Below, piece by piece: positions 1-21,648 of a stretch of DNA of 64,000 nt. The position numbers and the translations under genes were made by a program. The DNA comes from a virus, in IMG/VR virus record IMGVR_UViG_3300027734_000038; one strand, 5' to 3'. The notes below the pieces were generated by a model that was not told the origin of the DNA, did no database searches, and was given only the letters and a program-made list of their open reading frames with translations. Numbering within the stretch: the first letter of the stretch is position 1; each line of letters begins with the position of its first letter.

Positions 1-1
1 T

Positions 2-3418: not shown

Positions 3419-4327
3419 ATGGCAACTAATTCAAACTTTAAAATCAAGAATGGCCTGACAGTCAACACGACTGATGTTATTGCTGCCAACGGAGCTTGGA
3501 TTGGTATTGCTACAAACTTAGTAGGTGGCACAGGCGCAACAGGTGTTACAGGTCCTACAGGTGCGACAGGCGTTCAAGGACTTTTAGGGCCCACAGGTCC
3601 TACTGGTGCCACGGGTATTACGGGTTCAACAGGACCAGATGGTCCAACCGGCCCAACCGGTTCTACAGGACCAACAGGTCCATTAGGTGCAACTGGTCTA
3701 ACAGGACCACAAGGTGCGACAGGCGTTACTGGTCCATCAGGTCCAGTCGGTTCAACAGGTATCACAGGACCTACTGGTCCTACAGGCCCAGCCGGTCCTA
3801 CTGGTGCAACTGGTGGTTTGCAAGCTTGGCTTGTAATTACTGCTAATACAGCTGCATCAGGCAACACACAATATATTGCTAACACAGCTGCTGGTTCATT
3901 TACATTAACATTACCTGCAACACCAAACATTGGTTCAACAGTTGCTGTTGCCGATGGTTACAGTTGGGGTGCCAACAATTTAGTTGTAGCACGCAATGGT
4001 TCTACTATTGAAAGAGTTGCAGATGATATCTCTCTCAATATTACAAACAGTTTAGTTTATTTTGTATACACAGGCGACACATGGCAGGTTGTATCTACTG
4101 CTGGTCCTGCCGGTGCAACTGGTGCTACAGGTGCAAATGGTAGTAATGGTGCTTCTGGTGCCACAGGTCCTGGTGGTTCATATACTGGATTTGTAATTCA
4201 CACAGATACTATTCAAGCAAACACAACGATTGCTTCAGGCAATAATGCCTTGTCTGTTGGACCAATCACACAAGCAAACAATGTCACAGTAACTCTTGCT
4301 AGCGGTCAACGCTGGATAGTAATCTAA
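3419..4327 (+). CDS. collagen-like fibre stalk/adaptor (gp34-like repeat domain; C-terminal SVGPIT adaptor)
   Basis: MATNSNF N-terminus shared with 7297; GPT collagen; FTLTLPATP...[11 protein letters not shown] domain; ends [24 protein letters not shown]. Confidence 0.75.
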
Positions 4328-4335
4328 GGAATAAC

Positions 4336-4926
4336 ATGGCTCTCATTTTTGATGGCACAACCGGTACAATTAGTGGAGCAGTAGTTGCCAACACACAGTT
4401 GTCTGGCACAATGACTTCTTCACAAATTGGTTCTGTTTCTAATACATCAATTACAGGCACTATGGCATACTCACAGATGCCTTCAGGTAGTGTTGTTCAA
4501 GTTGCTGTGGGTCAAACAGATTTTAACGGTACTTTAACTGAAGGTGCTTCATATACTGTTGGTTCAGCAATTACTCCTGTAACTAGTTATTCTAAACTAT
4601 TAATGGTTGGTAATGTATATTTGCGTTCACCTTATGCTTATGGTGGTTATGGCGATTATACTATTGGACCTAACTACGGTATTGGTAATAGCCTTTCAGA
4701 TTCAAGTAGTACCTATACAATATTTCTTCAAGGCATGAACTCTGGTAATTTTGGAGGAGGTTCTTATACTGCTTCATCAAGCACTCCAAGTATTATGCAT
4801 TATGCTGTAAAAGGCACCGGTTCTTGGACAACTTCTGACACTCCACGATATACTATGCAGATTGGTCCTGTTTATGGCGGAACCTATTGGGGTAAAATGA
4901 CAGTTATCTACTACTTTATTAAATAA
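4336..4926 (+). CDS. fibre tip protein (divergent type A)
   Basis: MPSGSVVQV...ITP...SKLL motif. Confidence 0.6.
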   Translation: MALIFDGTTGTISGAVVANTQLSGTMTSSQIGSVSNTSITGTMAYSQMPSGSVVQVAVGQTDFNGTLTEGASYTVGSAITPVTSYSKLLMVGNVYLRSPYAYGGYGDYTIGPNYGIGNSLSDSSSTYTIFLQGMNSGNFGGGSYTASSSTPSIMHYAVKGTGSWTTSDTPRYTMQIGPVYGGTYWGKMTVIYYFIK

Positions 4927-4933
4927 GAAAACT

Positions 4934-5263
4934 ATGGAACAAGCAATTAAATTTATAGAAGCTGTCATAACATTGAGGCCAAATTCTATTGGTAAATTTG
5001 CCACTAGTGGTATTGAAATTACGGAATGGCACGATGAAAATAATATTCAGCCAACAAATGAAGAAGTCTTAGCAGAAGTTGCAAGAAAAGAATCTGAGTA
5101 TGACAACAATGAGTATCAAAGAAATAGAGCAAAAAAATATCCAGCAATTGCGGACCAACTTGATATGTTATGGCACGCAATGGATACTGGAGCATTACCT
5201 AAAGTTGATTCATTCTATGACGCCATTCAAGCCGTTAAGAATGAGTATCCTAAAGCAGAATAA
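4934..5263 (+). CDS. type-A tip partner protein
   Basis: YQRNRAKKYPAIADQLDMLWH; paralog of 15759. Confidence 0.6.
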   Translation: MEQAIKFIEAVITLRPNSIGKFATSGIEITEWHDENNIQPTNEEVLAEVARKESEYDNNEYQRNRAKKYPAIADQLDMLWHAMDTGALPKVDSFYDAIQAVKNEYPKAE

Positions 5264-5273
5264 ATAATACACA

Positions 5274-6194
5274 ATGAGCACAATATCAGCCGGCACAAGT
5301 AACACTACCTCACTCGTATACACAGGTGATACGACAGGTAACTTAGCGTTCCAAATTAATGGAACTACCGAAGCCATGCGTATCACTTCTGGTGGAAATG
5401 TGGGAGTTGGTACTACTAGTCCAGAAAAGAATTTTGATATTCTTGTGACTGGATCCAACCCAACATCAAATTTGCAAGTTCGAGCAAATCGCACAGGATA
5501 CGGAAATGTTAGAGCAGGACTTTCTGTTTATGCAGCAGGTAGTTCTTCTACAGACATTACAACGTTGGTTAATGAAGGCGGTGTTTTAGCATTTCAAACA
5601 GGATCTACAGAACGGATGCGTATTAAATCTACTGGTGCTGTTGTTGTTGGTAAAACAACTGAATCAGGAATGGCTACTGGCAGTTCTGTAAATATGGGTA
5701 TATGTTTAAATGATAGTGGCAATCCAGGAATCCTTACTATTCAAGAAAATACTGATGCTAATTTATATTTGTCTAAAGCAAGCGGATATTCATCAGGCAT
5801 ATATACAAGATTTTATGTAACAGGTACACAAGTAGGTAAGATTGAAAGTAACGGATCATCTACGTCTTATGTGACTTCTTCTGACTATCGTTTAAAAGAA
5901 AATATTACACCAATGATTGGTGCTTTGGCTAAAATAGCGTTGTTAAAACCTGTTACTTACAAATGGAAAGCTAACGGTTCTGCAAGTGAAGGTTTTATTG
6001 CCCATGAATTGCAAGAGGTTTGTCCAGAGGCAGTAAGTGGAAAAAAAGATGCCGTAAATAAAAATGGAGATATTGAGCCACAAGGTGTTGACACATCATT
6101 CTTAGTGGCTACTTTAACTGCCGCTATTCAAGAACTAAACGCTAAAGTAGATGCACAAGCCGCAGAAATTGCCGCATTGAAAGGAAATAATTAA
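5274..6194 (+). CDS. tail fibre with C-terminal intramolecular chaperone (peptidase S74-like)
   Basis: SSDYRLKENI, GFIAHE, C-terminal coiled coil. Confidence 0.8.
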   Translation: MSTISAGTSNTTSLVYTGDTTGNLAFQINGTTEAMRITSGGNVGVGTTSPEKNFDILVTGSNPTSNLQVRANRTGYGNVRAGLSVYAAGSSSTDITTLVNEGGVLAFQTGSTERMRIKSTGAVVVGKTTESGMATGSSVNMGICLNDSGNPGILTIQENTDANLYLSKASGYSSGIYTRFYVTGTQVGKIESNGSSTSYVTSSDYRLKENITPMIGALAKIALLKPVTYKWKANGSASEGFIAHELQEVCPEAVSGKKDAVNKNGDIEPQGVDTSFLVATLTAAIQELNAKVDAQAAEIAALKGNN

Positions 6195-6982
6195 TGCCTT
6201 CAACCGTCAATGCAGACAATGGTGTATCATCAGGTTCAGTAGGTCTTAAATACGCCTCTGACAATAGCGGAGTATTGGCTCTACAAACAAATGGTAACAC
6301 AGCAGTAACGATTACATCTGCAAACAATGTGGGTATTGGAACAACAAGTCCAGATTCATTACTTCATGTAGTTAATCCATTGAGTGCTTCTATTCGTGTT
6401 GGTTATGCCGGCGGTTCTACAAATTATTATGATGCATCTGTTCACACATTTAGAGCAAACACAGGATCACCTTCTGTATTTGTGGCAAATCAATATGGTA
6501 TTGGATTAGGGACAGTTACACCATCTTCAGGTATGGGTATTGCTTTTCCAGCGGCACAAGTTGCTTCATCTGATCCTAATACATTAGATGATTATGAAGA
6601 AGGTACATTTACACCTATTGTTTATGGTGGCAGTTCTACTGGAACAACAACTTACAGTTCTCAATATGGAAAATATACAAGAATTGGAAATGTTGTAACT
6701 ATTAGCGCCCAAATGGATTGGACTTCTGCTACAGGAACAGGGTCAATGCAGATTGGAGGTTTTCCTTTTACGAGTTCTAGCACAACAGGTATTAATCCAA
6801 TTGGAACCGTAATGATGTATAATATTGCCGTTCCAGCAAGCAGTATTTTCTTTTCTCTATATACAAACGGTAATAATACTGTTGCAAATATTTATGCTAA
6901 TAGAGATAACAATACTTGGACTGCCGTTCAAATGGATTCTAACGCTATATTGTTATACACATTAACTTATTTTACGGCTTAA
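6194..6982 (+). CDS. tail fibre tip protein
   Basis: NVGIGTTSP; DPNTLDDYEEGTFTP...GKYTRIGNVVT domain. Confidence 0.7.
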   Translation: MPSTVNADNGVSSGSVGLKYASDNSGVLALQTNGNTAVTITSANNVGIGTTSPDSLLHVVNPLSASIRVGYAGGSTNYYDASVHTFRANTGSPSVFVANQYGIGLGTVTPSSGMGIAFPAAQVASSDPNTLDDYEEGTFTPIVYGGSSTGTTTYSSQYGKYTRIGNVVTISAQMDWTSATGTGSMQIGGFPFTSSSTTGINPIGTVMMYNIAVPASSIFFSLYTNGNNTVANIYANRDNNTWTAVQMDSNAILLYTLTYFTA

Positions 6983-7296: not shown

Positions 7297-8106
7297 ATGG
7301 CAACTAATTCAAACTTCATAATTAAAAATGGCCTGACAGTAGGCGCTAATACTGTTATTGCCGCTAACGGTATGTGGGTTGGTGCCAACACAAATTTAGT
7401 AGGTGCCACAGGTATTGCTGGTCCAACAGGACCTACAGGTCCACAAGGTTCAACAGGTCCTGCCGGTCCAACTGGTGCAACAGGTACTATTACCGCATGG
7501 ACTAGAGTTACTGCCAATACAAATCTTACAGCCAATGCACAATACATTGCTGATACATCTGGTGGTCCTTTTACTGTAACACTACCAGCAACTCCATCTT
7601 TAGGAACTATTGAAGTTATTTCTGATGGCGCTGCATGGGGTAATAACAATCTGACAGTTGCTCGTAATGGTTCTACTATTGAAGGACAGGCACAAGATTT
7701 AATATTAAATATTTCAACTAGTTTAGTGTATTTAATTTATGATGGCACTACTTGGAATCTTACTTCGACTGCTGGTCCACAAGGTGCCACCGGTCCTTTA
7801 GGTCCTACTGGACCAACAGGTGCGACTGGTGCAGGTTCTACTGGTGCCACCGGTTCTACTGGACCTGGAGGTCCTGCCGGTCCATCCGGTCCAACAGGTC
7901 CAACTGGTGCAACAGGTGCTTTTTCTGGCACGACAGCAGCACAGATTATAACAACAAACACAACTGCAGCTACTTCTAATATAACCGGTTCTATTATTGG
8001 TGCTGGTGGTTTAGGTGTTTCAGGTAATGTTTATGCAGATGCAGTTTATTCTGGTGGTCAAGAAGTTATTGGAACAAGTCTAGCCTTTTCAATTGCTTTG
8101 GGGTGA
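7297..8106 (+). CDS. collagen-like fibre stalk/adaptor
   Basis: Paralog of 3419 (N-terminus, collagen, LTLPATP domain); ends AFSIALG. Confidence 0.75.
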   Translation: MATNSNFIIKNGLTVGANTVIAANGMWVGANTNLVGATGIAGPTGPTGPQGSTGPAGPTGATGTITAWTRVTANTNLTANAQYIADTSGGPFTVTLPATPSLGTIEVISDGAAWGNNNLTVARNGSTIEGQAQDLILNISTSLVYLIYDGTTWNLTSTAGPQGATGPLGPTGPTGATGAGSTGATGSTGPGGPAGPSGPTGPTGATGAFSGTTAAQIITTNTTAATSNITGSIIGAGGLGVSGNVYADAVYSGGQEVIGTSLAFSIALG

Positions 8107-8109
8107 TAA

Positions 8110-8802
8110 ATGAATAGTGGAATATATTGCATAACAAATACTATAACCGGTAAAAAATATATTGGTCAAAGTAAAAATATTAAAAGAAGATTTAATAGCC
8201 ATAAAAGAGCATCTGTAACCAAGAAAAAAGGTGAATGTTTTTATTTACAAAATGCAATTGGTAAACATGGTATAGATAATTTTACTTTTGAAATATTGTT
8301 ATATGCAACAGATAGAGATTATTTAAACATTATGGAACGAAAATGTATAATTGAATTCGATACATTATCTCCTAATGGTTATAATTTGGATACTGGTGGT
8401 TATTTTAATAAAACCATTAGTGAATCAACAAGACAAAAAATGAATGGTAGAACTCCTTGGAATAAAGGTGTTCCTATGTCAGAAGAACAAAAACAAAAAT
8501 TATCTAAAATGAAAAAAGGAAAACCTGCGGCCAACAAAGGAGTTCCTGCTTCAGAAGAACAGAAAAGAAAACAATCAATTGCAATGAAAGGAAAACCTGC
8601 GGTTAATAAAGGTATTCCTATGTCTGAGGAACAAAAAAAGAAGCTTCGTAAAGCGGATAAATCTTACACTCAGACACCAGAGTATAGAAAAAAGATGAGT
8701 GAATCTCTTAAAAAAAGAGTCATTTCACCAGAGCATAGGGCAAAAATTAACGCCGGACAAAGGTTAAGAGCCGAACTAAATAGAAGTAGAAAAGGATTAT
8801 AA
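8110..8802 (+). mobile_element. free-standing GIY-YIG homing endonuclease with NUMOD3-like repeats (Seg-like)
   Basis: SGIYCITN...KKYIGQS, conserved R and E, NGYN; three NKG.P.SEEQK repeats; more AT-rich than its neighbours. Confidence 0.9.
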
Positions 8803-9131
8803 TGGCCAATACATTTACAAGTTATCTCAATAAGAATATTCCAACTACGGGTGCAACTGTTGTAACCGCTTCTGGTGGAACACAGACTACAGTTATTGGC
8901 CTATCTTGTGCAAACATTTCTACTGCAAATACTATTACTGCTGATGTTTATATTACTCGTTCAGCAGTAGATTATTATTTGGTTAAAGGTGCTACAGTAC
9001 CTATTGGTGGTTCTCTTGTGGTAGTTGGCGGAGACCAAAAGGTTGTTCTTGTTGCTGGCGATGCACTCAAAGTGGTGTCATCTGCAAACACTTCAATGGA
9101 TGTTGTTACATCTGCACTAGTCATCTCATAA
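8802..9131 (+). CDS. small virion structural/adaptor protein
   Basis: MANTF...; beta-rich, QKVVLVAGDALKV; type common in fibre loci of T4-like phages. Confidence 0.6.
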   Translation: MANTFTSYLNKNIPTTGATVVTASGGTQTTVIGLSCANISTANTITADVYITRSAVDYYLVKGATVPIGGSLVVVGGDQKVVLVAGDALKVVSSANTSMDVVTSALVIS

Positions 9132-9140
9132 GGATAATTA

Positions 9141-10445
9141 ATGTCTTTTATTGGGAATAGTTTTACTAATCAAACATTTGTTCCACAAGTAGATTACTTT
9201 AATGGTAATGCCTCTAATACTGCATTTACTTTAAGTAGAAATGTTGCCTCAGCTGCTGATGTTCAAGTGGTTATCGAAAACGTACCACAGAATCCATCAT
9301 CAGCATTTACAGTATCAGGTAATGTAATCACATTTACTTCTGCACCACCTAGTGGCACAAACAACATCTATGTTCGTTACACAAGTCCAACAACCAATTT
9401 GGTTAAGCCGGCTCCTGGTACAGTAAGTAATACAGAAATTAGTTCTGCATTTTCTTTGTGGAATTTAAGTGGTGCTGATATTAATTATACAGCAGGTAAT
9501 GTGGGGATTGGTACTGCTAGTCCGACAGGAAAGTTAAATGTTGTTCAAAACGGAACTCCTATTATTTCTCAATTTAATAGGACTGATGCTGGAACAGGAC
9601 TTGTTATAGCTGCAGATTCTTCTGGACCATATTTTAGACCCACAACAAGTAGTGCAATTCGCTGGAATAATTCAGGTAATACAGTAGAATATATGCGAAT
9701 TGATTCTAATGGTAATATTGGTATTGGTGCTACTAGTCCTTGGTCACAAGTTTCAATGTTAACGCCAGCTGGAGGAACAGACGGATATTTTGGTGTTAAA
9801 GACACTACTTATGGTGGTGATGTTCGTTTTGGCAAAGCAAGTGGTATTAACAATAATGCAATTGCAGGAGTTTGGTCAAATAACGAATTTCTGTTTTACA
9901 CCAACGGCACAGAACGGATGCGTATTAGTTCTGGTGGTAATTTTCTTGTTGGCGGCACAACACCAATAGGAACAGATGGAAACTTATTAGCAAGCGCTGA
10001 TTACACATCAACTTATAGAAGCACAGGAACTTCTGGTGCTTATATTCATGCTTTTGCATCTGATATAGGTGGAACAAGAACAGTTAAATATGCCGTTTAT
10101 GCTAACGGAACTGTAGGCGCAGTATCAGACCAAAACTTTAAAAAGAATATTGAACCAGCTAGAAATTACCTTGCTGATTTAATGAATATTGAAGTTGTTA
10201 AATACAACTGGAAATCAGATGAAGAAAATGCACCTAAAGAATTAGGTTACATTGCTCAACAAGTAGAAACTGTTTTTGCTGGAATGGTTGATGAGCAAAC
10301 ATATAAAGATGGTAATGGCGAAGAAGTAACACAAAAAATGTTGAAGAAAGAAGTGTTTGTGCCCATGCTTCTCAAAGCAATACAAGAACAACAAGCAATT
10401 ATAGAAGATTTAAAATCTCGTATTGAAGTATTGGAGGCCAAATAA
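9141..10445 (+). CDS. tail fibre with S74-like chaperone domain
   Basis: MSFIGN; FNG..AFTL...FTSAPP domain; GNVGIGT repeats; VSDQNFKKNI, GYIAQQ. Confidence 0.8.
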   Translation: MSFIGNSFTNQTFVPQVDYFNGNASNTAFTLSRNVASAADVQVVIENVPQNPSSAFTVSGNVITFTSAPPSGTNNIYVRYTSPTTNLVKPAPGTVSNTEISSAFSLWNLSGADINYTAGNVGIGTASPTGKLNVVQNGTPIISQFNRTDAGTGLVIAADSSGPYFRPTTSSAIRWNNSGNTVEYMRIDSNGNIGIGATSPWSQVSMLTPAGGTDGYFGVKDTTYGGDVRFGKASGINNNAIAGVWSNNEFLFYTNGTERMRISSGGNFLVGGTTPIGTDGNLLASADYTSTYRSTGTSGAYIHAFASDIGGTRTVKYAVYANGTVGAVSDQNFKKNIEPARNYLADLMNIEVVKYNWKSDEENAPKELGYIAQQVETVFAGMVDEQTYKDGNGEEVTQKMLKKEVFVPMLLKAIQEQQAIIEDLKSRIEVLEAK

Positions 10446-11539
10446 TGGCAATCTCAAAAATAACTGCCAACTCTTTAGATAATGGTGGAGGTTCAGTTGC
10501 CACCAATACTGCGGTTGGCCAAGGAACTTTAAACTCAAATAGTTCTGGGGGTTTTAATACAGCAATGGGTTATCAAGCTGCATATAATACCACAGGTTCA
10601 AACAATACTGCAATTGGTTATCAATCACTCGTTTCAAATACCACCGCAGGAGGTAGCACTGCTGTAGGATACAGAGCACTATATTCTGCAAATAGAACTG
10701 ATGATGTAAATGGATATAACACGGCGGTTGGATACACCGCTGGGTATTCTCAAGCTACGGGACAGTTCAATGTATTTATTGGTAGAGATTGCGGGTATTC
10801 TGCAACTGGCTCTGAAAACACTTTTGTTGGGCATACATCAGGTTACTACACAACTGGAAGCTCCAACACTTTTATTGGAAAACAAGCAGGTTATCTAGTA
10901 ACAACAGGTTATAACCAAGTATTTCTTGGGAGTTTTAGTGGAAACCAAAATACATTAGATATGCGGACAGCAAGCAATACTATTGTATTGTCTGATGGTG
11001 GTGGGGTTCCAAGAGCGTGGTATCAATCCGCCAACTTTATTATTTCTCCAGTTTCTCCAACAGGTATTCAATATACTGCTGACAATGCACAATTTTATCC
11101 TTATCCAGATAACACAGCTAAATTAGGTTATCCATCATATCGATGGACTGTTGTGTATGCTGTATCAGGAACAATTAATACTTCTGATGCCAATCAAAAA
11201 CAGCAAATTCGTAGTCTTGACGAAAAAGAAAAAGCAGTGGCTACACGCATTAAAGGTTTAATTAAAGCGTTTAAATGGAATGATTCAGTTGCTGAAAAAG
11301 GCGATGGTGCTCGTATCCACGTTGGTGTAATTGCACAAGATGTTCAATCTGCGTTTATTGCAGAAGGTTTAGACCCCAGCCATTATGGTATGTTCTGTTC
11401 TGATACTTGGTATGAAGTTGATGGTAAAGCTGGAAAAGCATCCGATCCACACACAGCCGACACAGAAGGTGCGGTTGAAGTTACGCAACTTGGTGTTCGT
11501 TATGACCAACTTTTAGCTTTTGTGATATCGGCTCTATAA
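10445..11539 (+). CDS. tail fibre (YadA-head-like NTAVG repeats) with S74-like chaperone
   Basis: NTA(V/I/M)G repeats; TSDANQKQ, HVGVIAQ, GVRYDQL. Confidence 0.8.
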   Translation: MAISKITANSLDNGGGSVATNTAVGQGTLNSNSSGGFNTAMGYQAAYNTTGSNNTAIGYQSLVSNTTAGGSTAVGYRALYSANRTDDVNGYNTAVGYTAGYSQATGQFNVFIGRDCGYSATGSENTFVGHTSGYYTTGSSNTFIGKQAGYLVTTGYNQVFLGSFSGNQNTLDMRTASNTIVLSDGGGVPRAWYQSANFIISPVSPTGIQYTADNAQFYPYPDNTAKLGYPSYRWTVVYAVSGTINTSDANQKQQIRSLDEKEKAVATRIKGLIKAFKWNDSVAEKGDGARIHVGVIAQDVQSAFIAEGLDPSHYGMFCSDTWYEVDGKAGKASDPHTADTEGAVEVTQLGVRYDQLLAFVISAL

Positions 11540-11548
11540 GGATAATTA

Positions 11549-12550: not shown

Positions 12551-13500
12551 TGACACAAGCCGCAATACTAGCTTCTTCAGCATCCTCTGGTGTTTCTACT
12601 GGATACAAAAATAGAGTTATCAATGGTGGCATGGTTATTAACCAAAGAGGCACAACATCAGGTGTAACTTCAGGTTACTTTGTTGACCGTTGGCAATTAA
12701 GTGGTTGTAGCACATCAAGTGTTTTAACTTCTAGTCTACCTACAGGATTTAGTAAAGGTATTAGTATTACTGCCACTTCAGGTAATCCAATTGCTATTCA
12801 TAAAATTGAAGCGGCAAATTGTTCTGATTTAAGTGGTCAAAGTGTTACGCTTAGTTTCTATGCACAGAATATTTCAAATGCCACCACATTATACGCATCA
12901 TTGGCATATGCAACTGCATCAGATAATTTTGGTGGCACAACAACCATTTCAGAACAAAATTTAGGAACACTAACGGGTTCATGGGTTAGATATACATACA
13001 CATGGAATAATTTACCAAGTGGTGTGCTTAACGGACTGTCAATCAATATTCTTTGTGGTGGTTCTGGAACATTCACCATGGGCATTACTGGTGTCCAGCT
13101 GGAAGTTGGAACCACGACAACAAATTTTGAATACCGTGATTACGGAAATGAATTGAGAATGTGCCAAAGGTATGCACAAAGATTTGGCGGTGATGTTGCT
13201 TATTCGGCAATAGGATTTGGCTTTGGTGATTCAGCTAATGGATGGGTAGATGCACAAGTCACACCACCAACAGTGATGAGAACTGTTCCTTCAGTAACAT
13301 CAAGTGGAAGTTTTAGAGTAGTACCACCTGATAATACAAGTGGTTTAGCTGTTACTGGAATTTCAATAAATGGTAGCACAGCAAATTCAAAACTATTTTA
13401 TATAATTTGCACGGCATCAAGCATTACTGGTTTTAGAGGTTATGTTTTAAGGGCGGACAATTCAACTTCTGCTTATATTCTTTTTTCTGCGGAGTTATAA
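12550..13500 (+). CDS. fibre tip type C (CBM-like jelly-roll)
   Basis: KNRVING...DRW...VTLSF...ITGVQLEVG...CQRY...SAEL; paralog of 17222 and 20399. Confidence 0.7.
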   Translation: MTQAAILASSASSGVSTGYKNRVINGGMVINQRGTTSGVTSGYFVDRWQLSGCSTSSVLTSSLPTGFSKGISITATSGNPIAIHKIEAANCSDLSGQSVTLSFYAQNISNATTLYASLAYATASDNFGGTTTISEQNLGTLTGSWVRYTYTWNNLPSGVLNGLSINILCGGSGTFTMGITGVQLEVGTTTTNFEYRDYGNELRMCQRYAQRFGGDVAYSAIGFGFGDSANGWVDAQVTPPTVMRTVPSVTSSGSFRVVPPDNTSGLAVTGISINGSTANSKLFYIICTASSITGFRGYVLRADNSTSAYILFSAEL

Positions 13501-13662
13501 ATGTATAAATTAGGACAAACAAGCCCATTAACTAATGAACCAATTTGCATATATAAAACTGATAGCAATTTATCTATTCCATTATGTGCCGACAACACAG
13601 ACTACCAAGCCTACCTTGCATGGGTAGCAGAAGGCAATACTCCTTTACCAGCGGACGAATAA
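13501..13662 (+). CDS. type-C tip partner, 53 aa (not in ORF track)
   Basis: ...IPLCADNTDYQAYLAWVAEGNTPLPADE*; paralog of 18324 and 21484. Confidence 0.75.
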   Translation: MYKLGQTSPLTNEPICIYKTDSNLSIPLCADNTDYQAYLAWVAEGNTPLPADE

Positions 13663-13666: not shown

Positions 13667-13873
13667 ATGGCACTCACAAAAATACCAGCAACAATGGTGG
13701 GTAATTCCACCGCAAATACTGCTATGTCAGTTGGTGTTCCAATTATTGAGAACACACAGACTGTTTCATATCCGTATACAATCAGCGCCAACAATTCAGC
13801 AATCTCTGTTGGTCCAATAACACTTTCAGCCAATGTAACAATTGGTTCTGGAAGTAGATGGGTAATCGTATGA
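13667..13873 (+). CDS. minimal adaptor protein (MALTKI plug + SVGPIT domain)
   Basis: Ends SAISVGPITLSANVTIGSGSRWVIV, like 3419, 16069 and 18958. Confidence 0.7.
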   Translation: MALTKIPATMVGNSTANTAMSVGVPIIENTQTVSYPYTISANNSAISVGPITLSANVTIGSGSRWVIV

Positions 13874-14409
13874 CAGCATTAGTAATTCTTGGAGATACAA
13901 GTGGTTCAGTAACCTTGGCGGCACCAGCGGCTGCAGGTTCAACTACTCTAACTTTGCCTACACAAACCGGCACGGTTGGTCTAAGTGGTCCTGCATTTTT
14001 GGCTTATGGTACTGCTTTGACTAGTTGTGCTAGTGGTGCTTCCGTTAAGGTTAATTTAGCAGCAAAAGATTTTGATACAACAAGTTCATTTAATACCTCA
14101 ACATCTCGCTGGACTCCACTTGTTGCTGGGTATTATCTATTAACTGCTTCTATGTATTTTCCAAGTGCGGCATCTGGTAAAAACGGAGAATTATTTTTTC
14201 TAAAAAATGCAGCAACAAGCATAACCAACGGATTAATGAGCACTTATAACGGACAAGGTATGATTTTATGTGCATCAACAATTTGTTATCTTAATGGTTC
14301 TACTGATTATGTTGAATGTTATGTATATCAAGATTCTGGTAGCACTTTAAATATGGGTTCCAATTCTTATGGTTATAACTTTAACGGTTGTTTTTTAAGA
14401 GGTGCATAA
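13870..14409 (+). CDS. fibre tip type B (C1q-like)
   Basis: ATGA overlap with upstream stop; GSVTLAAP N-terminus; PAFLAY...RWTPLVAGYY...DYVECY. Confidence 0.7.
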   Translation: MTALVILGDTSGSVTLAAPAAAGSTTLTLPTQTGTVGLSGPAFLAYGTALTSCASGASVKVNLAAKDFDTTSSFNTSTSRWTPLVAGYYLLTASMYFPSAASGKNGELFFLKNAATSITNGLMSTYNGQGMILCASTICYLNGSTDYVECYVYQDSGSTLNMGSNSYGYNFNGCFLRGA

Positions 14410-14573
14410 TGAGTTTATATGATAAAATTGTTGCACTTTATCCAGAATTAGTTGCTACTGATTTTTCTCCGTCTATGGGTTCAATCAGGTTGCAAGATGA
14501 AGGTAATGGTGTTTATATTGCCAAATGGGAACACCCAACATTACCTAAACCTACGGATGAACAGTTAGCATGA
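14409..14573 (+). CDS. XkdW-like small partner protein
   Basis: MSLYDKIVALYP...DF...LQDEGNGVYIAKW...PKPTDEQL resembles PBSX XkdW N-terminus. Confidence 0.65.
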   Translation: MSLYDKIVALYPELVATDFSPSMGSIRLQDEGNGVYIAKWEHPTLPKPTDEQLA

Positions 14574-15091
14574 CCACAACAATTAACGCAAGTACCTCTG
14601 CCGGTTTAATAATTACTCCTGATACTTCAGGTAATATTCAGTTACAATATAATGGTGTGGCTGCACCAGCATTTAGTGCTTATGTTACAGGAAATCAAAG
14701 TATTTCTTCAGGTACTTTTACAAAAATGCAATGTGGTACAGAAGAATGGGATACAGCTAGTTGTTATGATAACGCAACAAATTATAGGTTTACTCCTACT
14801 GTTGCCGGATACTATCAATTTAATGGTATGTGGGGTGCGGCTTCAGGATCACCAACAAGAGTTATTATAGCCTTGTATAAAAATGGTAGTGTTGCTAGAT
14901 ATGGATTAGATTTAGGTATAAGTTCTGCAGGATTCAATAATGGAGCAGGAGATGTGGTTAGTTCCATGTTATATCTAAATGGCACAACCGATTATGTTGA
15001 ACTTTATGCATATGCCGCAGGTGGTGCAACAATCCAAGGCGGAAATAGTGCATCTGGTTATTTTCAAGGTTACTTAGCAAGAGCTGTTTAA
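14570..15091 (+). CDS. fibre tip type B (C1q-like)
   Basis: PAFSAY...RFTPTVAGYYQ...YLNGTTDYVELY. Confidence 0.7.
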   Translation: MTTTINASTSAGLIITPDTSGNIQLQYNGVAAPAFSAYVTGNQSISSGTFTKMQCGTEEWDTASCYDNATNYRFTPTVAGYYQFNGMWGAASGSPTRVIIALYKNGSVARYGLDLGISSAGFNNGAGDVVSSMLYLNGTTDYVELYAYAAGGATIQGGNSASGYFQGYLARAV

Positions 15092-15109: not shown

Positions 15110-15292
15110 ATGAAAACTTTATACGAAAAAATTCTATCAATCTATCCAGAACTAACTGATGCTGATTTTATGCCAGGTCGTGGCACAATTATGCTTCAGA
15201 ATGATTCTGACGGCCGTGGTGATTACATCAGAGAATGGAATCATGCAACATTGGCAGAACCAACAGAAGAACAATTAGCGAGCGCTGAATAA
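15110..15292 (+). CDS. XkdW-like small partner protein
   Basis: LYEKILSIYP...LQNDSDGRGDYIREWN...PTEEQL. Confidence 0.65.
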   Translation: MKTLYEKILSIYPELTDADFMPGRGTIMLQNDSDGRGDYIREWNHATLAEPTEEQLASAE

Positions 15293-15738
15293 TGTCTATT
15301 GTATTGAACGGTACTAATAATCAAATTACTGGAGTACCGGGATTGGTATTGCAAGTGGTTAGTTCTACTTTTACTTCTTCGTTTTCTTCTTCATCGGGAA
15401 GTTTTGTTTCTATAGGATTAACCGCATCTATTACACCAACAAGTTCTTCAAGTAAAATTTTGATATTAATAGATTCGTTTGTTCGTAGTGATGCTGCAAA
15501 TTTTGTTGATGCAACAATTTATAAAAATTCCACTAATTTAGGTGGAGCATATGGTTTAAAAAATGCTTATGTAAACGCAGCATTTGTTATGCCAATTCCG
15601 TTTACTTATTATGATTCACCAGCAACAACTTCTTCAACTTCTTATACATTGTATATGCGGACTGAAAATGCCGCCACTTTTTACTTAGAAGCTGCTGGTA
15701 GAGTTTCAACAATCACACTTATGGAAATAGCAGCTTAA
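15292..15738 (+). CDS. fibre tip type A
   Basis: LVLQVVS...ITPTSSSSKILI...YDSPATTS...ITLMEIAA. Confidence 0.7.
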   Translation: MSIVLNGTNNQITGVPGLVLQVVSSTFTSSFSSSSGSFVSIGLTASITPTSSSSKILILIDSFVRSDAANFVDATIYKNSTNLGGAYGLKNAYVNAAFVMPIPFTYYDSPATTSSTSYTLYMRTENAATFYLEAAGRVSTITLMEIAA

Positions 15739-15758: not shown

Positions 15759-16055
15759 ATGAGAATCTCTAAAATTGATGCAATCTTATCTCTATCACCT
15801 GGTGCTGAAGTAGTAGTGCGTGGTGAAGAAGTAGAATGGATTAATCCTTCTACTGCACCTGTAACTGAAGCACAAATTGCTGCTGAGTTGGTAAGACTCC
15901 AAGCAGCCTACGAAGCAAAACAATATCAGCGTGACCGTGCTGGTGAATATCCAGCAATTGGTGACCAATTGGATGCTTTGTTCCATGCAGGAGTATTCCC
16001 TGAAGCCATGGCAGAAATCATTCAGGCCGTCAAAGATAAATACCCTAAATCATAA
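15759..16055 (+). CDS. type-A tip partner protein
   Basis: YQRDRAGEYPAIGDQLDALFH; paralog of 4934. Confidence 0.65.
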   Translation: MRISKIDAILSLSPGAEVVVRGEEVEWINPSTAPVTEAQIAAELVRLQAAYEAKQYQRDRAGEYPAIGDQLDALFHAGVFPEAMAEIIQAVKDKYPKS

Positions 16056-16068: not shown

Positions 16069-16692
16069 ATGCAATATCAAAGTTTCGTTGCTGGGTCAGG
16101 AATATCAGGTGCTACCGGTCCAACCGGTGCTACTGGTGTCATTGCACCGTGGACAAGAATCTCCGCAAATACAAGTGCTTCGGCTAATACACAGTATCTA
16201 GCCAACACAGCAACTGGTGCCTTCACTCTAACATTACCAGGTACACCATCAGTTGGTGTTATGGTAGTGATTGCTGATGATTATAACTTTGGTGCAAACA
16301 ATCTTTTTGTTGCAAGAAATGGTTCTACTATTCAAGGCATTGCTGATGACTTAGGTATTAACATCAGCAACTCATTGACAACATTGATTTATGATGGTAC
16401 TACTTGGAGAGTTTCTACAAATGCTGGACCACAAGGTGCAACTGGTGCCACAGGTCCTACAGGAACTTCTGGTACCAACGGTGCCACAGGTGCTACCGGT
16501 TTAGGTGCTACTGGTGCTACTGGTGCCAGTTTGTTTGCTGATTCCAATAATGTTATTTTTTTAAATAATACGTTGATTACTTCTAACACAACATTGCAAC
16601 CAGGTCGTGGTGCATTTTCTGTTGGACCAATCTCTGTTAATACAGGTGTTCAACTTATTGTTTCATCTAACACAAGGTATGTGGTACTATGA
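16069..16692 (+). CDS. collagen-like adaptor (gp34-like domain + SVGPI domain)
   Basis: [11 protein letters not shown]-terminus; FTLTLPGTP domain; ends FSVGPISV...RYVVL. Confidence 0.7.
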   Translation: MQYQSFVAGSGISGATGPTGATGVIAPWTRISANTSASANTQYLANTATGAFTLTLPGTPSVGVMVVIADDYNFGANNLFVARNGSTIQGIADDLGINISNSLTTLIYDGTTWRVSTNAGPQGATGATGPTGTSGTNGATGATGLGATGATGASLFADSNNVIFLNNTLITSNTTLQPGRGAFSVGPISVNTGVQLIVSSNTRYVVL

Positions 16693-17222
16693 GTAATATT
16701 ATTCTAGGCTCAGGACCTTCAGGTTCAGGTTCATTAACCTTACAAGCACCGAATACAAATAGTAATCAGACAGTTAATTTTCCTGATGCTTCTGGCATAC
16801 CCATGGTTAGTGGTAATATGCCAGCGTTTTATGCTTATCAAAATTCAGCACAATCAATTCCAAATGTAACTTGGACTAAAGTATTGTTTCAAGTAGAAGA
16901 ATTTGATACTAATAGTAATTTTGCTTCAAGCCGTTTTACTCCTACTGTTGCTGGTTATTACCAACTTACTTCTCAATTGCAATATACAACTATTGCTGGT
17001 GGAAGAAATATGTTTGTAATATATAAAAATGGTGCTGAGTATAGACACCTACAGGATATGCAAACAAGTTACACTATTGGATTAATGGGAACTTCATTAG
17101 TTTATGCAAATGGTTCATCAGACTATTTTGAAATTTATATTTATACGTCAACTGGTGCATACACATTAGATAATAATTCAGCAATAACATATTTTAGCGG
17201 TTGTTTAGTGAGGGCTGCATAA
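16689..17222 (+). CDS. fibre tip type B (C1q-like)
   Basis: GSLTLQAP N-terminus; MPAFYAY...RFTPTVAGYY. Confidence 0.7.
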   Translation: MSNIILGSGPSGSGSLTLQAPNTNSNQTVNFPDASGIPMVSGNMPAFYAYQNSAQSIPNVTWTKVLFQVEEFDTNSNFASSRFTPTVAGYYQLTSQLQYTTIAGGRNMFVIYKNGAEYRHLQDMQTSYTIGLMGTSLVYANGSSDYFEIYIYTSTGAYTLDNNSAITYFSGCLVRAA

Positions 17223-18322
17223 TGCCATACGGTTCAATCTCAGTAGACCAAATTAATAACACCACAGGATATTCTCTTGGTGCTGGTAACGCTTCTATTA
17301 TGAAGAATCGCATTATCAATGGTGCGATGGTTATTGACCAAAGAAATGCTGGTGCTAGTGTTACGCCAGCAAATAACACTTACACTTTAGACCGATGGAA
17401 TACTTATCAAAGCACTTCTTCTGCTTATAGTGTTCAACAAAATGCTGGTTCTGTAACACCACCATTAGGGTTTACAAACTATCTTGGCGTAACTTCTTTA
17501 GCAGCAACTTCATTATCTGCTGGAAGTTATTTTATGCTTACTCAAATTATTGAAGGATTTAATGTTGCTGATTTAGGTTGGGGAAGTGCTAACGCCAAAA
17601 CTATAACATTATCTTTTTGGGTGCGTAGTTCTTTAACTGGAACATTTGGCGGATCTTTACAAAATGGTGGAACAAGAAGCTACCCATTTACTTACACAAT
17701 TTCTGCCGCAAATACTTGGGAACAAAAATCAATTACTGTTGCAGGTGATACAAGTGGAACTTGGGCAACAGATAATACTGCTGGCATTAAATTACGAATT
17801 GGTCTTGGTGTTGGCACAACCGCAAGCACAACTGCTGGCGCATGGGCAACCGGCGATTACTATTCAGCAACAGGTGCCACTTCAATAGTAGGAACAAACG
17901 GTGCCACATTCTATATTACTGGAGTTCAGTTGGAAGTTGGAAGTGTGGCCACAGGTTATGAATATGAAAATATTGCTCAAACTTATTCAAAATGCCAACG
18001 CTATTACACAGTTTTGTTATCAGGCAACGATAAGAGTTTATGCCTTGCAACTTGGTATAACACTTCAGAATGGGATGCAGTAGTATTTTTTCCAACGATG
18101 CGGTCAGCACCTACAGCATCATCAACAACAGTATCTTCTGGATATTATTTTGATAAATTAGGTGGCAATATTACTTTTGACAATATTAGTGGTGTTTTTG
18201 GTGCTGGCTTAAATGTTGCACAACCATACAAAGTGGCATTAAGTGGCGGTGTTGCTGGTTATTGCGGAAGCATTAGAACTTTAAATGCTTCTTGTTTTAT
18301 TGCTTTAAGTGCGGAGTTATAA
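17222..18322 (+). CDS. fibre tip type C (CBM-like)
   Basis: KNRIINGAM...ITGVQLEVG...CQRYY...LSAEL; TAATG overlap fixes the start. Confidence 0.7.
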   Translation: MPYGSISVDQINNTTGYSLGAGNASIMKNRIINGAMVIDQRNAGASVTPANNTYTLDRWNTYQSTSSAYSVQQNAGSVTPPLGFTNYLGVTSLAATSLSAGSYFMLTQIIEGFNVADLGWGSANAKTITLSFWVRSSLTGTFGGSLQNGGTRSYPFTYTISAANTWEQKSITVAGDTSGTWATDNTAGIKLRIGLGVGTTASTTAGAWATGDYYSATGATSIVGTNGATFYITGVQLEVGSVATGYEYENIAQTYSKCQRYYTVLLSGNDKSLCLATWYNTSEWDAVVFFPTMRSAPTASSTTVSSGYYFDKLGGNITFDNISGVFGAGLNVAQPYKVALSGGVAGYCGSIRTLNASCFIALSAEL

Positions 18323-18323
18323 A

Positions 18324-18491
18324 ATGACCTATCAATTATCAAATTTTCGTGGCAAATTAGCTTGCATTGTAAAAACTGATGGTAACATGAAACATTTTAT
18401 TCCTTTATCGAAAGATAACACCGATTACCAAGAATATCTAAAATGGGTTGCAGAAGGTAACACACCAGAACCAGCAGAAGGCACAGAATGA
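18324..18491 (+). CDS. type-C tip partner protein
   Basis: IPLSKDNTDYQEYLKWVAEGNTPEPA. Confidence 0.7.
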   Translation: MTYQLSNFRGKLACIVKTDGNMKHFIPLSKDNTDYQEYLKWVAEGNTPEPAEGTE

Positions 18492-18961
18492 CAACGACTA
18501 TTGACGGTAATTCAGGAGTTATATTTCCAAATAACACTACACAAGCTAGTGCTGGTCAAGTGTTGCAGGTGGTTAATGGCACTTATTCAGGCCCCTATTT
18601 TTCAACAACAAGTACCACTTTTGTATCTACTGGATTAACGGTAACTATTACACCTAAGTTTGTTACAAGTAAAATTTTATTACTTTTACAAGTTGAAGTT
18701 TATAATGATACAGCAAATAAAGGTGGTGATTTAACCATTTATAAAAATGGTGCAAATTTAGCCTCAGGTTTATTAGGAAGAATGTATCCTATTTCTGGTC
18801 AATTAGCTATTAATATTCCTATTAATTATTACGATTCGCCATCAACAACATCAGCAACAACTTATACACTTTATATTAAAACAACAAATGCTGGATATGC
18901 TTTCAATGCTTTTCAAGATGCTTTTCCATCAACAATTACTGCATTGGAAATAGCAGCATGA
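18488..18961 (+). CDS. fibre tip type A
   Basis: GQVLQVV...ITPKF.TSKIL...YDSPSTTS...ITALEIAA. Confidence 0.7.
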   Translation: MTTTIDGNSGVIFPNNTTQASAGQVLQVVNGTYSGPYFSTTSTTFVSTGLTVTITPKFVTSKILLLLQVEVYNDTANKGGDLTIYKNGANLASGLLGRMYPISGQLAINIPINYYDSPSTTSATTYTLYIKTTNAGYAFNAFQDAFPSTITALEIAA

Positions 18962-19329
18962 CAATATACTTAGGGCAAATTGCTGGTTCTGGAATATCTG
19001 GTGCAACCGGTCCTACAGGTCCAACTGGACCATCTGGTGCTACTGGTGTATTTCCAACAAGCAGTTCAGCTAACTTAGCAATCACTAATGCCAATACATC
19101 AACATCAAATACTACTGGTGCTCTGACTGTTGCAGGTGGTGTAGGTGTTACAGGTAATGTATGGGTAGATACTGTTGTTGTTACGAATGGTTTGATACTT
19201 AATTCTAACACAATAAATAGAAGTTATACAGTACCAGACAATTACAATGCTGGTTCATTTGGTCCAATCACAGTAGCAAACTCTGCGATTGTTACAGTAC
19301 CAAGTGGTTCAATTTGGACCGTGGTTTAA
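18958..19329 (+). CDS. short collagen adaptor with C-terminal GPIT domain
   Basis: [10 protein letters not shown]; TGALTVAGGVGV; ends SFGPITVANSAIVTVPSGSIWTVV. Confidence 0.7.
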   Translation: MTIYLGQIAGSGISGATGPTGPTGPSGATGVFPTSSSANLAITNANTSTSNTTGALTVAGGVGVTGNVWVDTVVVTNGLILNSNTINRSYTVPDNYNAGSFGPITVANSAIVTVPSGSIWTVV

Positions 19330-19338
19330 GGATAAAGA

Positions 19339-19848
19339 ATGACATTCAAAGTTGATGGATCAAACGGATTAACATTTCCAAATAACACTACACAAGCTAG
19401 TGCTGGCCAAGTGTTGCAAGTTGTTCAAGCAGAATATGCCACACAAGTATCTTTATCTTCTATAACATATACAGATACCGGATTATCCGCAACCATTACT
19501 CCTAAATTTGCAACAAGTAAAATTTTAGTTAATATAAGTCAAAATCTATACATATACAGAGAGTTTGCATTTCAATATGGATATCTTCAACTATTGAGAA
19601 ATGGTTCTGTTGCAAAAGATTTTAGATTAGTTATGAATCAAACTGCTGGAAATCCTGCTGGCGGAAGTTATCCTTACCACGACATGAGTGCGGTTGTTGG
19701 ATTAAGTTATTTGGATTCACCAGCAAGCACTTCTGCTTTAACATATAAAACACAACAAAAATGTGGAACAACAAGCAATGGCGGAACAATAATTGCTCAA
19801 ATTGATAGTGCTCCATCTTTCATTACACTTATGGAGATTGCAGCCTAA
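19339..19848 (+). CDS. fibre tip type A
   Basis: GQVLQVVQ...YLDSPASTS...ITLMEIAA. Confidence 0.7.
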   Translation: MTFKVDGSNGLTFPNNTTQASAGQVLQVVQAEYATQVSLSSITYTDTGLSATITPKFATSKILVNISQNLYIYREFAFQYGYLQLLRNGSVAKDFRLVMNQTAGNPAGGSYPYHDMSAVVGLSYLDSPASTSALTYKTQQKCGTTSNGGTIIAQIDSAPSFITLMEIAA

Positions 19849-20399
19849 TGCCAATTAAATTACAATCTTCTTCTGGTGGTTCAGTTACTTTAGATGTGCC
19901 GGTCACAGCAAGTAACTTTAATGTAACTGTACCTAATGCTTCTGGTACTGCTATGGTTAGCGGTAATATGCCAGCGTTTAGTGCTTATAAAACTTCCCAT
20001 CAAAGTTATTCAAATAATACTTGGACAAAAATAACTTACGACACAGAAGAATATGATACCAATAGTAATTTTGCTTCAAGCACTTTTACTCCCACAGTTG
20101 CAGGGTATTATCTGTTTACTGCAAGAAACCAATTTATTGCAGATGGAGTTGCAATGGCTGAAATAAATTCAGCGTTTTTTAAAAATGGCACTATTGCTAA
20201 AACAGGAACTTATAAGTATCAACCAGCGGCACTTACTGCACAATTTGGAAGTAACATTTCTGCTGTAATTTATTGCAACGGTACAACAGATTATGTTGAA
20301 TGTTACGGAAGAACTGACGGAAGCACTTTGTATGTTTATGGTGCAGCTGGTGCGGCGCCTTACACATACTTTCAAGGCATTTTAATGAGGGCTGCATAA
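19848..20399 (+). CDS. fibre tip type B (C1q-like)
   Basis: GSVTLDVP N-terminus; MPAFSAY...FTPTVAGYY...DYVECY. Confidence 0.7.
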   Translation: MPIKLQSSSGGSVTLDVPVTASNFNVTVPNASGTAMVSGNMPAFSAYKTSHQSYSNNTWTKITYDTEEYDTNSNFASSTFTPTVAGYYLFTARNQFIADGVAMAEINSAFFKNGTIAKTGTYKYQPAALTAQFGSNISAVIYCNGTTDYVECYGRTDGSTLYVYGAAGAAPYTYFQGILMRAA

Positions 20400-21487
20400 T
20401 GTCGGTACAATACGGCGGAGATAAAATAACATTTGCTGATGGTTCTTCTACATCTAGTGGATATACTTTTAGAAATAGAATCATTAACGGTGCCATGGTT
20501 ATAAGCCAATATAACGGCACAAGTAGTGTATCAATAGATAACACTAAAAACCAATACTACATTGACAGATGGGCTATTCAAAACAATACTGGTTCTGCGG
20601 TGTTTTCTTATCAACAAGTTACAACTGCACCAACCGGATTTAACAATAGTTTAAAAATAACTGTTACTACTGCTGATGGTTCTTTAACTTCTACTGCTAA
20701 AGCACAAATTTATCAACCAATTGAAGGTTACAACATTGCCGATTTAGGATGGGGAACTGCCAACGCCAAATCCGTTACCTTGTCATTTTGGGTTCAATCT
20801 AGTGTAACAGGAACTTTTGGTGGTGCATTGGGCAACAATGCTAATGATAGAAGTTATCCATTTACATATACAATCTCATCAGCAAATACTTGGGAACAAA
20901 AATCAATTACCATTGCTGGTGATACAACAGGCACTTGGCTAACTACTAATGGTTTAGGCATCAATGTTGATTTTAGTTTAGGTGCTGGAACTTCTCGTAG
21001 TGGAACTGCTGGTACTTGGGGTGGTGCTTGGTACACTTCTGCTACTGGTGCAACTAATTTATTAGCTACAAACGGAGCCACATTCTACATTACTGGTATT
21101 CAGTTTGAAGTAGGAAGTTCATCAACAACTTTTGAAGCTCGTGATTACGGAAATGAATTAAGAATGTGTCAGCGGTATTATCAGTTATGTAATGGATTTC
21201 TTGGAACTCCGGGCGCTTCTACTACAATCATGTATACATCTATTCAATACCAAGTTGCAATGAGAGCAAATCCATCTTTAGGACAAACAGGAGTTATTAA
21301 TATGACTGCACCCGGTGTTGATACATGGCAACAATCTAGCACAGGTATAGCAGCTGGAGGCCAAAATACAACAGGAACATGGATTCAATTAAACAATTTT
21401 TCTGGTTTAACTCAGCATAGACCATATGTCCAGTCCGTTAATTATGCTGGCAATGGATATGTTATTACTTTATCTGCGGAGTTATGA
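20399..21487 (+). CDS. fibre tip type C (CBM-like)
   Basis: RNRIINGAM...ITGIQFEVG...CQRYY...LSAEL. Confidence 0.7.
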   Translation: MSVQYGGDKITFADGSSTSSGYTFRNRIINGAMVISQYNGTSSVSIDNTKNQYYIDRWAIQNNTGSAVFSYQQVTTAPTGFNNSLKITVTTADGSLTSTAKAQIYQPIEGYNIADLGWGTANAKSVTLSFWVQSSVTGTFGGALGNNANDRSYPFTYTISSANTWEQKSITIAGDTTGTWLTTNGLGINVDFSLGAGTSRSGTAGTWGGAWYTSATGATNLLATNGATFYITGIQFEVGSSSTTFEARDYGNELRMCQRYYQLCNGFLGTPGASTTIMYTSIQYQVAMRANPSLGQTGVINMTAPGVDTWQQSSTGIAAGGQNTTGTWIQLNNFSGLTQHRPYVQSVNYAGNGYVITLSAEL

Positions 21488-21648
21488 TGATTTATAAATT
21501 AATGAATGTAATGGGACATGAATCGGTAAGTTTATTTAAAGATACAGAATTTGTAATGAATATTCCATTTGATCCAGATAACACAGATTACCAAAAATAT
21601 CTAAAATGGGTTGCAGAAGGCAACGAACCATTACCAGCGGACGAATAA
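21484..21648 (+). CDS. type-C tip partner, 54 aa (not in ORF track)
   Basis: ...IPFDPDNTDYQKYLKWVAEGNEPLPADE*. Confidence 0.75.
   Translation: MMIYKLMNVMGHESVSLFKDTEFVMNIPFDPDNTDYQKYLKWVAEGNEPLPADE

Follow-up and report, generated by a model that had tools for sequence, protein, structure and literature searches.

Four genes in the tail fibre locus of a T4-like myophage end in the same C-terminal module of ~46 amino acids (aa), here called MOD, and each is followed by three genes for tip proteins that begin with short, recurrent peptides. The locus lies in a 64,000-nucleotide stretch of viral DNA (IMG/VR record IMGVR_UViG_3300027734_000038; the whole stretch is referred to as the window), in which all relevant genes are located between positions 1 and 26,000 on the + strand and the DNA directly downstream of the fibre locus is similar to genes for neck proteins in Caulobacter phage Cr30 and Methylophilales phage Melnitz. 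We propose that MOD serves trimeric fibre stalks and tiny adaptor proteins as a docking end (socket), that the genes directly after it encode exchangeable receptor-binding tips, and that each tip, which would have its own small chaperone-like partner, joins MOD through its short N-terminal peptide (plug). Physical docking of the tips on MOD appears likely, and the simultaneous display of three tips at one fibre end, and with it the three-pronged explanation as a whole, is a possibility that we place slightly below an even chance.

The four MOD genes (3419, 13667, 16069 and 18958, designated by their start positions) are intact open reading frames (ORFs) on the + strand, and the alignment of the module (A1) contains an invariant G-P core. 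A MOD profile built from 62 copies, all from outside the window, was searched against 468 window ORFs and matched the four genes at E values of 9.9e-22 (3419), 2.7e-20 (18958), 6.9e-16 (16069) and 8.9e-16 (13667). Since the fifth-ranked ORF reached only E 0.45, the window contains exactly four MOD copies, with matches far beyond chance. This confirmed the claim of an earlier reading of the same DNA, made without database searches (the sequence-only reading), that four genes share a C-terminal module.

The MOD proteins of the window differ in what precedes the module. In stalk 1 (3419) the profile match covers residues 257-302, stalk 3 (16069) is 51% identical to stalk 1, stalk 4 (18958) carries a MOD of the S-F-G-P / W-T-V subtype, and the 68-aa product of gene 13667 consists of little besides MOD. 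Collagen-like repeats (Pfam PF01391, cut-off 27.2 bits) were detected in 3419 (58.7 bits, E 4.9e-16) and in the stalk gene 7297 (39.9 bits), and 16069 scored 19.3 bits, below the cut-off. Because of these repeats the stalk is taken to be trimeric, and three copies of MOD would therefore stand at its end. Beyond the collagen-like repeats, neither MOD nor the whole MOD proteins had a Pfam, NCBIfam or PDB sequence match. PHROG matches to the MOD part were confined to C-terminal ends of fibre families, mostly unnamed and one of them a 3319-aa fibre family; the MOD of 18958 matched the C-terminal ends of phrog_5342, 36881, 29752, 18671 and 34255. MOD motif strings and marine-phage docking peptides were found in no paper in a literature search.

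Three tip genes follow each MOD gene when small partner genes are set aside: 4336, 5274 and 6194 after 3419 (partners 4934 and 7034); 13870, 14570 and 15292 after 13667 (partners 14409, 15110 and 15759); 16689, 17222 and 18488 after 16069 (partner 18324); and 19339, 19848 and 20399 after 18958 (partner 21484). The genes are as follows.

3419..4327, + strand: stalk 1, 302 aa, with collagen-like repeats, a central stalk domain and C-terminal MOD (~4187-4324); Pfam Collagen and MOD profile
4336..4926, + strand: tip 1a, 196 aa, N4-type N-terminal peptide; N4 plug profile, no Pfam match
4934..5263, + strand: small partner P3, 109 aa; 38% identical to the 15759 gene, which matches phrog_9114
5274..6194, + strand: tip 1b, 306 aa, N1-type peptide and C-terminal Peptidase_S74 intramolecular chaperone; PF13884 at E 4e-14, N1 plug
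6194..6982, + strand: tip 1c, 262 aa, N2-type peptide; N2 plug, in a slot that holds an N2 tip or an N2+MOD adaptor in L001, L003 and L004
7034..7285, + strand: small partner, 83 aa; similar N-termini (by eye) on small genes after tips in L003, S-T4, S-B05 and P-TIM68
13667..13873, + strand: mini-adaptor, 68 aa, MOD at ~13742-13870; MOD profile, stop overlapping the 13870 start (ATGA)
13870..14409, + strand: tip 2a, 179 aa, N3 peptide, C1q-like type B; BLAST family, plug profile and C1q comparison
14409..14573, + strand: partner P2, XkdW-like; matches the PBSX prophage small protein XkdW (Pfam PF09636) at 27.1 bits, cut-off 24.6
14570..15091, + strand: tip 2b, 173 aa, N1 peptide, type B; BLAST family and plug profile
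15110..15292, + strand: partner P2, XkdW-like; Pfam XkdW PF09636, 30.9 bits, cut-off 24.6
15292..15738, + strand: tip 2c, 148 aa, short N4-like peptide, type A; the profile of type A hits the C-terminal portion of the LME-1 tail fibre
15759..16055, + strand: partner P3, 98 aa; phrog_9114 at E 2.3e-23
16069..16692, + strand: stalk 3, 207 aa, MOD at ~16552-16689; MOD profile
16689..17222, + strand: tip 3a, 177 aa, N3 peptide, type B; start overlapping the stalk stop
17222..18322, + strand: tip 3b, 366 aa, N5 peptide, type C with predicted CBM-like core; phrog_4492 tail fibre at E 7.9e-47
18324..18491, + strand: partner P1, 55 aa, always after type C
18488..18961, + strand: tip 3c, 157 aa, N4 peptide, type A
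18958..19329, + strand: stalk 4, 123 aa, MOD at ~19189-19326; MOD profile and PHROG
19339..19848, + strand: tip 4a, 169 aa, N4 peptide, type A
19848..20399, + strand: tip 4b, 183 aa, N3 peptide, type B
20399..21487, + strand: tip 4c, 362 aa, type C; 54% identical to the 17222 gene
21484..21648, + strand: partner P1, 54 aa

ATGA stop/start overlaps occur at 13870, 16689 and 18958. That stop and start codons at the junctions either overlap or lie almost in contact counts in favour of the docking proposal. The tips run in the order B-C-A after 16069 and A-B-C after 18958, so that, as the sequence-only reading had noticed, the last two triads each contain one tip of types A, B and C in different orders. 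The gene counts given in that reading also stood, and its strict 1:3 rule holds inside the window. The next stalk after the first triad (7297) lacks MOD, however, and at least 10 fibre-like genes, in 7297-13662 and 1-3263, lie outside the rule.

The distribution of MOD was investigated by scanning viral contigs with A1, which yielded 243 confirmed hits; 80 loci were kept, and all ORFs of these loci and of the window were analysed. These ORFs contained 105 copies of MOD, in proteins of 68-1392 aa, and all 105 ended within 0-1 residues of the stop. When 1.84 billion representatives were searched with a profile, 9,084 proteins were detected at E <= 1e-3, counted as protein clusters at 50% identity, and 5,392 at E <= 1e-10. 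The module was terminal in 149 of the 150 best library matches, and the library also contains proteins of 55-76 aa that are almost MOD only. The sole exception among the best 150, P0002 (329 aa), has four tandem internal MOD-like units of ~48 aa each. By tblastn, MOD was present in 291 of 50,697 phage records, mostly T4-like cyanophages, with Methylophilales phages, Lentibacter phage ICBM1, the T7-like cyanophage SS120-1 and a Vibrio phage among the rest. The carriers thus include cyanomyoviruses, T7-like podoviruses and Zobellviridae podoviruses, with hosts ranging over cyanobacteria, Methylophilales, the Roseobacter group (Lentibacter) and Enterovibrio, and their downstream tips are diverse. 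Conservation of MOD across unrelated hosts while the tips vary fits an assembly part and not a receptor binder. Sorting of the MOD proteins into lineages by BLAST single linkage was dropped, as a single cluster resulted because low-complexity stalks are shared.

The genes after MOD start with recurrent peptides, which fall into five classes (N1-N5). The three N-terminal patterns described in the sequence-only reading correspond to N4, N3 and N1, and the classes are real and recur in relatives. Plug profiles were seeded by pattern from all ORFs of the loci; some N4-like variants went undetected by them and entered the counts by eye. All of the plug-bearing genes (n = 166) follow a MOD gene at a distance of at most nine genes (166/424 genes in these stretches versus 0/694 elsewhere), and a second round of profiles added zero new members. 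In an unselected phage collection the N3 peptide occurred in seven records, and all seven bear MOD, on the same strand, with the peptide 0.7-1.5 kb downstream of it. One peptide class was found on different distal domains, which indicates that peptide and domain are separate modules. Clade members (L001, L003, L004 and the window) have plug classes and gene order in common but not their distal domains. Covariation of MOD subtype and plug was considered and rejected: the S-F-G-P / W-T-V subtype tends to occur with Lys-containing plugs and R-W-I-V-I with Phe at plug position 5, but the examples are few and clade-bound.

Some small proteins combine or isolate these elements. A 106-aa protein of L003 consists of an N2 peptide and MOD, occupies the slot of the N2 tip in relatives including the window, and is then followed by three tips; similar plug+MOD proteins were found in L035 (108 aa) and cyanophage S-B05 (101 aa). 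Their location in tip positions suggests that they are serial adaptors. A plug+MOD protein would fill a tip position and begin a further branch, and MOD-only and plug+MOD proteins make sense as adaptors and hardly otherwise. Very short N1/N2 plug proteins of 74-112 aa were also observed in tip positions after MOD (L009 9204-9524, L056 9122-9388, L066 7151-7432, L093 3138-3401 and L096 4481-4705).

MOD might instead be a cap at the C-terminus that assists folding or trimerisation, or a beta-structural shaft repeat of a generic kind; the tips would then attach to the baseplate or tail at other places, and the linkage would reflect only conserved gene order. The tandem internal units of P0002 fit this explanation, as do the MOD genes that lack following tips (13 contexts; S-CAM7), but it has difficulty with the tips themselves, which have only 8-40 residues before the globular domain and no recognisable tail-binding domain. 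Nor is a role as a cap evident for MOD-only or plug+MOD proteins of 68-108 aa; plug-bearing genes were never found away from MOD genes, and in the podoviruses SS120-1 and MEP402 the series of fibre genes begins with the one for the small MOD protein. We consider this explanation improbable. A docking end is the best reading of MOD because the module is conserved across unrelated hosts, always terminal, and tied to hypervariable genes that are alike only in a short N-terminal peptide.

We examined how many tips follow a MOD gene by an automatic walk downstream of each MOD gene, with complete contexts only. The results showed 0 tips in 13 contexts, 1 in 5, 2 in 9, 3 in 22 and 4 in 1. When the N-termini were read by hand, three tips were present in 34 of the 39 complete contexts with any tip; most of the automatic counts of 2 became 3 by eye. 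Homing endonuclease genes interrupt some triads, and some N4-like variants had been missed by the profile. Homing-endonuclease-like genes with GIY-YIG or HNH motifs (by eye) lie between tips in L033 (4225-4875), L031 (10350-11018) and L058 (2445-3095). An independently drawn 76-kb contig (L094) has a triad of N1, N3 and N4. Among cultured phages, three tips were found in Venkman, MEP402, SS120-1, S-T4, S-B05 and Vibrio phage 1.052.A and, in dispersed form, in MA01, two in ICBM1, one each in P-TIM68 and S-RSM4, and none adjacent in S-CAM7; in a tally of ten cultured phages, six had three. The zero-tip class consists mainly of large MOD proteins, and a few genes further on a second, small MOD protein carries the triad. 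In L013 (4752-7380) and L031 (4743-7370), three genes lie between the large MOD protein (893 aa) and the small one (251-254 aa), and the first of them begins like a family-2 glycosyltransferase (by eye). A protein family with a Phe/Ala/Pro-rich N-terminus adjoins MOD genes or triads in L006 (5635-6828), L040 (10277-11200), L079 (6784-7626) and L081 (11169-11885).

Three is thus the clear mode in myoviruses and in T7-like and Zobellviridae podoviruses, and not a strict rule. Outside the window, therefore, the 1:3 rule of the sequence-only reading softens to a preference; that reading had regarded variable counts among relatives as a point against it, and such counts were found in part, with three as the mode. 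Nearly every triad contains exactly one N4-type tip, and the other two usually belong to differing classes (assigned partly by profile, partly by eye). Triads with repeated classes occur in L046, L049 and L065, and the triad of L015 consists of three C1q-like proteins.

The three-pronged explanation holds that the three MOD copies at the end of a stalk would hold three tip oligomers together, typically one N4-type tip and two tips of other peptide classes. That three positions are filled together is favoured by the recurrence of the number three, by the fact that this genome spreads twelve tips over four MOD genes, three to each, instead of placing all of them after a single one, and by the plug-only proteins in tip slots. 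The comparative data support the core of the three-way junction proposed in the sequence-only reading, namely an adaptor end to which the downstream tips, usually three, would attach through their plugs; the display of three tips on it is what we infer. In its fullest form, in which each of three positions would have to hold a different tip oligomer, with an N4 tip among them, and mini-adaptors would give recursive, tree-like fibres, the proposal is tentative and rated below the display of three tips as such.

Several observations weigh against a three-pronged end. Counts of 0, 1, 2 and 4 occur, the loci counted are not phylogenetically independent, and two MOD proteins accompany a single triad in L013, L053, L006 and L075. 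The idea that plug classes occupy fixed slots was ruled out, as the class pairs form a triangle (N1-N2-N5), and three identical MOD chains cannot alone distinguish three plug classes. The tip types (S74, C1q-like and type A) look homotrimeric, and the simplest docking would be one-on-one along the stalk axis. The tandem repeats of P0002 indicate that the MOD unit can also be plain structural repeat material.

Some of these points are accommodated by a different arrangement, in which each stalk end carries one homotrimeric tip docked axially on MOD, the three genes encode alternatives, the virion has mixed fibres, and the number three is that of an inherited cassette kept by exchange at conserved borders. 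The tip domains are of homotrimer-forming kinds, identical MOD chains provide nothing from which three different sites could arise, some contexts have 1, 2 or 4 tips, and a triad can be shared between two MOD proteins. Conserved plugs and order with differing distal domains within clades are what exchange at conserved borders would produce. This arrangement nevertheless leaves the constant three across very different phage types unexplained, as well as the nearly invariable single N4-type tip per triad; the genome multiplies MOD genes and not tips per MOD gene, and the plug-only proteins of 74-112 aa in tip slots would mean blank fibres. We regard it as rather unlikely.

Tip and partner families were defined by all-against-all BLAST of the window genes. 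Type A (~150 aa) comprises 770, 15292, 18488 and 19339; type B (~180 aa) comprises 13870, 14570, 16689, 19848 and the C-terminal half of 11549; and type C (~365 aa) comprises 12550, 17222 and 20399, each followed by the ~55-aa partner P1. Peptidase_S74 (PF13884) was detected in tips 5274 (53.1 bits, cut-off 22), 9141 and 10445. At E 3e-19, the type-A profile matched the C-terminal ~170 residues of a trimeric podovirus fibre, the tail fibre of Legionella podophage LME-1 (PDB 9EFK; PMC12407071). The type B tips of the window had no Pfam match at E 0.01, and the 13870 gene had no C1q match; 3 of 16 type-B family members matched Pfam C1q (best 2e-4), the member from cyanophage SS120-1 scored 36.3 bits against C1q (cut-off 23.7), and the type-B family profile found cerebellin (5.8e-6) and C1q chains. 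These profile comparisons suggest that type B is C1q-like.

The structure model of type C (17222) is confident for residues 30-245, and residues 1-29 have a predicted local distance difference test (pLDDT) score of 30-38. Foldseek searches with the core retrieved CBM11, CBM4 and CBM16 at E values of 3e-6 to 1e-4, and also phage E217/Pa193 chains from entries titled tail baseplate and baseplate complex and tail fibre. The modelled core is a CBM-like beta-sandwich, for which sugar binding is only a candidate role. Of the labels in the sequence-only reading, CBM-like is supported by Foldseek on a confident model, and C1q-like is suggested by family-profile and Pfam matches in relatives. It is plausible that the tips are receptor binders with short N-termini, which are probably unstructured, and the small partners would be chaperone-like, one per tip in the proposed scheme.

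The low pLDDT of the type-C N-terminus, together with that of the 68-aa adaptor monomer (pLDDT 53, an unreliable model from a 55-row alignment), is compatible with folding on assembly. Complex prediction with three copies of the 68-aa adaptor and one copy of each tip, run without controls, gave scores of 0.16 and 0.06 against a mark of 0.32 and speaks neither for nor against binding.

The tip families also bear on a third arrangement, in which the three tip genes would each supply one chain of a heterotrimeric tip, joined by the three peptides into a mixed neck that continues the three MOD chains, as in the A, B and C chains of C1q, with three monomeric heads per stalk. Exactly three genes, three peptide classes and the triad of three C1q-like proteins in L015 would all be accounted for. 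The S74 chaperone family, however, is established as forming homotrimers, so that S74-bearing tips are expected to be homotrimeric; triad members differ widely in size and fold (A ~150, B ~180 and C ~365 aa), and triads with repeated classes exist (L046, L049 and L065). We consider a heterotrimeric tip very improbable.

Docking of separate tips on MOD has parallels in known branched systems of receptor-binding proteins (RBPs). In KP32, K11 and KP34, podophages that infect Klebsiella, the primary fibre has an internal gp10-like dock, and a second RBP joins it via a short conserved N-terminal peptide (PMC13352976, PMC6872550). The likeness lies in a docking element, proposed in the present case, on the primary fibre, an N-terminal plug peptide on the partner and exchangeable distal domains. 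The Klebsiella dock is internal and T4 gp10-like, its carrier has its own receptor-binding end, and there is one partner, whereas MOD comprises ~46 aa at the extreme C-terminus, has no detectable gp10 similarity, usually has three partners and also occurs in MOD-only proteins.

CBA120-type systems carry gp10-like XD domains in the N-terminal parts of their tailspikes. Sequence searches of the window proteins with Pfam, NCBIfam and PHROG found no gp10-like XD domain. Branched tailspike complexes have been described for TSP1-4 of CBA120 (Ackermannviridae; PMC11414711) and for G7C, phiK64-1 and phiKp24 (PMC9700779), and they resemble the present system in having several RBPs on one attachment point and serial adaptors that give tree-like assemblies. 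MOD lacks both sequence similarity to gp10-type docks and their N-terminal position; a partner with a short conserved N-terminal peptide was found, at the level of sequence. The sequence-only reading had noted no obvious likeness to T4 gp10-like domains, and at that level this holds. MOD therefore falls outside the gp10 family by sequence and position but would operate similarly.

In the BppU-BppL tripod of the lactococcal phage TP901-1, an adaptor trimer holds three RBP trimers via the C-terminal part of each adaptor chain. The geometry is the same as that proposed here, but the tripod holds three trimers of one protein and is a component of a siphovirus baseplate for Gram-positive hosts. No sequence relation between BppU and MOD was found, and MOD had no Pfam match of any kind. 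The T5-like phage DT57C has branched lateral fibres of LtfA and LtfB (PMC10713586), which likewise place two different RBPs on one fibre; they differ in their attachment, in having two partners instead of three, and in that no shared module was detected. What is new here is a very common, uncurated, probable docking module and the regularity in its partners, and branched plug-and-dock RBP systems as such are already known.

The host range of aquatic phages is set by fibre loci whose products are mostly annotated as hypothetical proteins. MOD and a few plug peptides would let annotators locate receptor-binding genes, pair tips with stalks and estimate the number of receptors addressed in cyanophages, Methylophilales phages and roseophages. 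If true, the proposal describes a general, so far undescribed rule by which a large proportion of aquatic phages, marine cyanophages among them, build their host-recognition apparatus; if the rule of three tips per end has a structural basis, it solves the problem of branching in a new way, distinct from the gp10-like domains of enterobacterial phages. MOD and plug would also provide a compact handle for tip swapping in laboratory phages. Cultured carriers of MOD exist, and the idea is therefore directly testable.

Additional features were observed at the other parts of the locus. The 269-aa stalk 7297 is similar to stalk 18958 as far as the start of MOD and then has a different end. It is followed by a GIY-YIG-like homing endonuclease gene at 8110-8802 (by eye) and a 109-aa gene (8802), and in L003 and L005, too, a stalk that lacks the module is followed first by a 109-aa gene and next by an S74 fibre. 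This arrangement may represent a second kind of junction. Junction DNA was checked for near-identical stretches, and among the 20 largest of 37 repeat families only paralogous stretches of 60-87% identity were found.

At the left end, positions 1-1273 of the window resemble another triad, with a partial small tip (2-328), a partner (346-765) and a type-A tip (770-1273), in the gene order that is also found downstream of L003's 383-aa MOD protein, and a fifth MOD gene is probably located directly upstream of the window. The locus is closed by a 499-aa protein (21652-23151) that combines collagen-like repeats with an fn3 domain and a glycine-rich one (PF21722); gp50 of Lentibacter phage ICBM1 and the 350-aa protein after the giant MOD fibre of S-RSM4 have similar glycine-rich ends. 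The N-terminus of the 132-aa gene product at 23165-23563 is like those of genes at the edges of the fibre loci in L009 (116 aa) and S-RSM4 (193 aa), as judged by eye.

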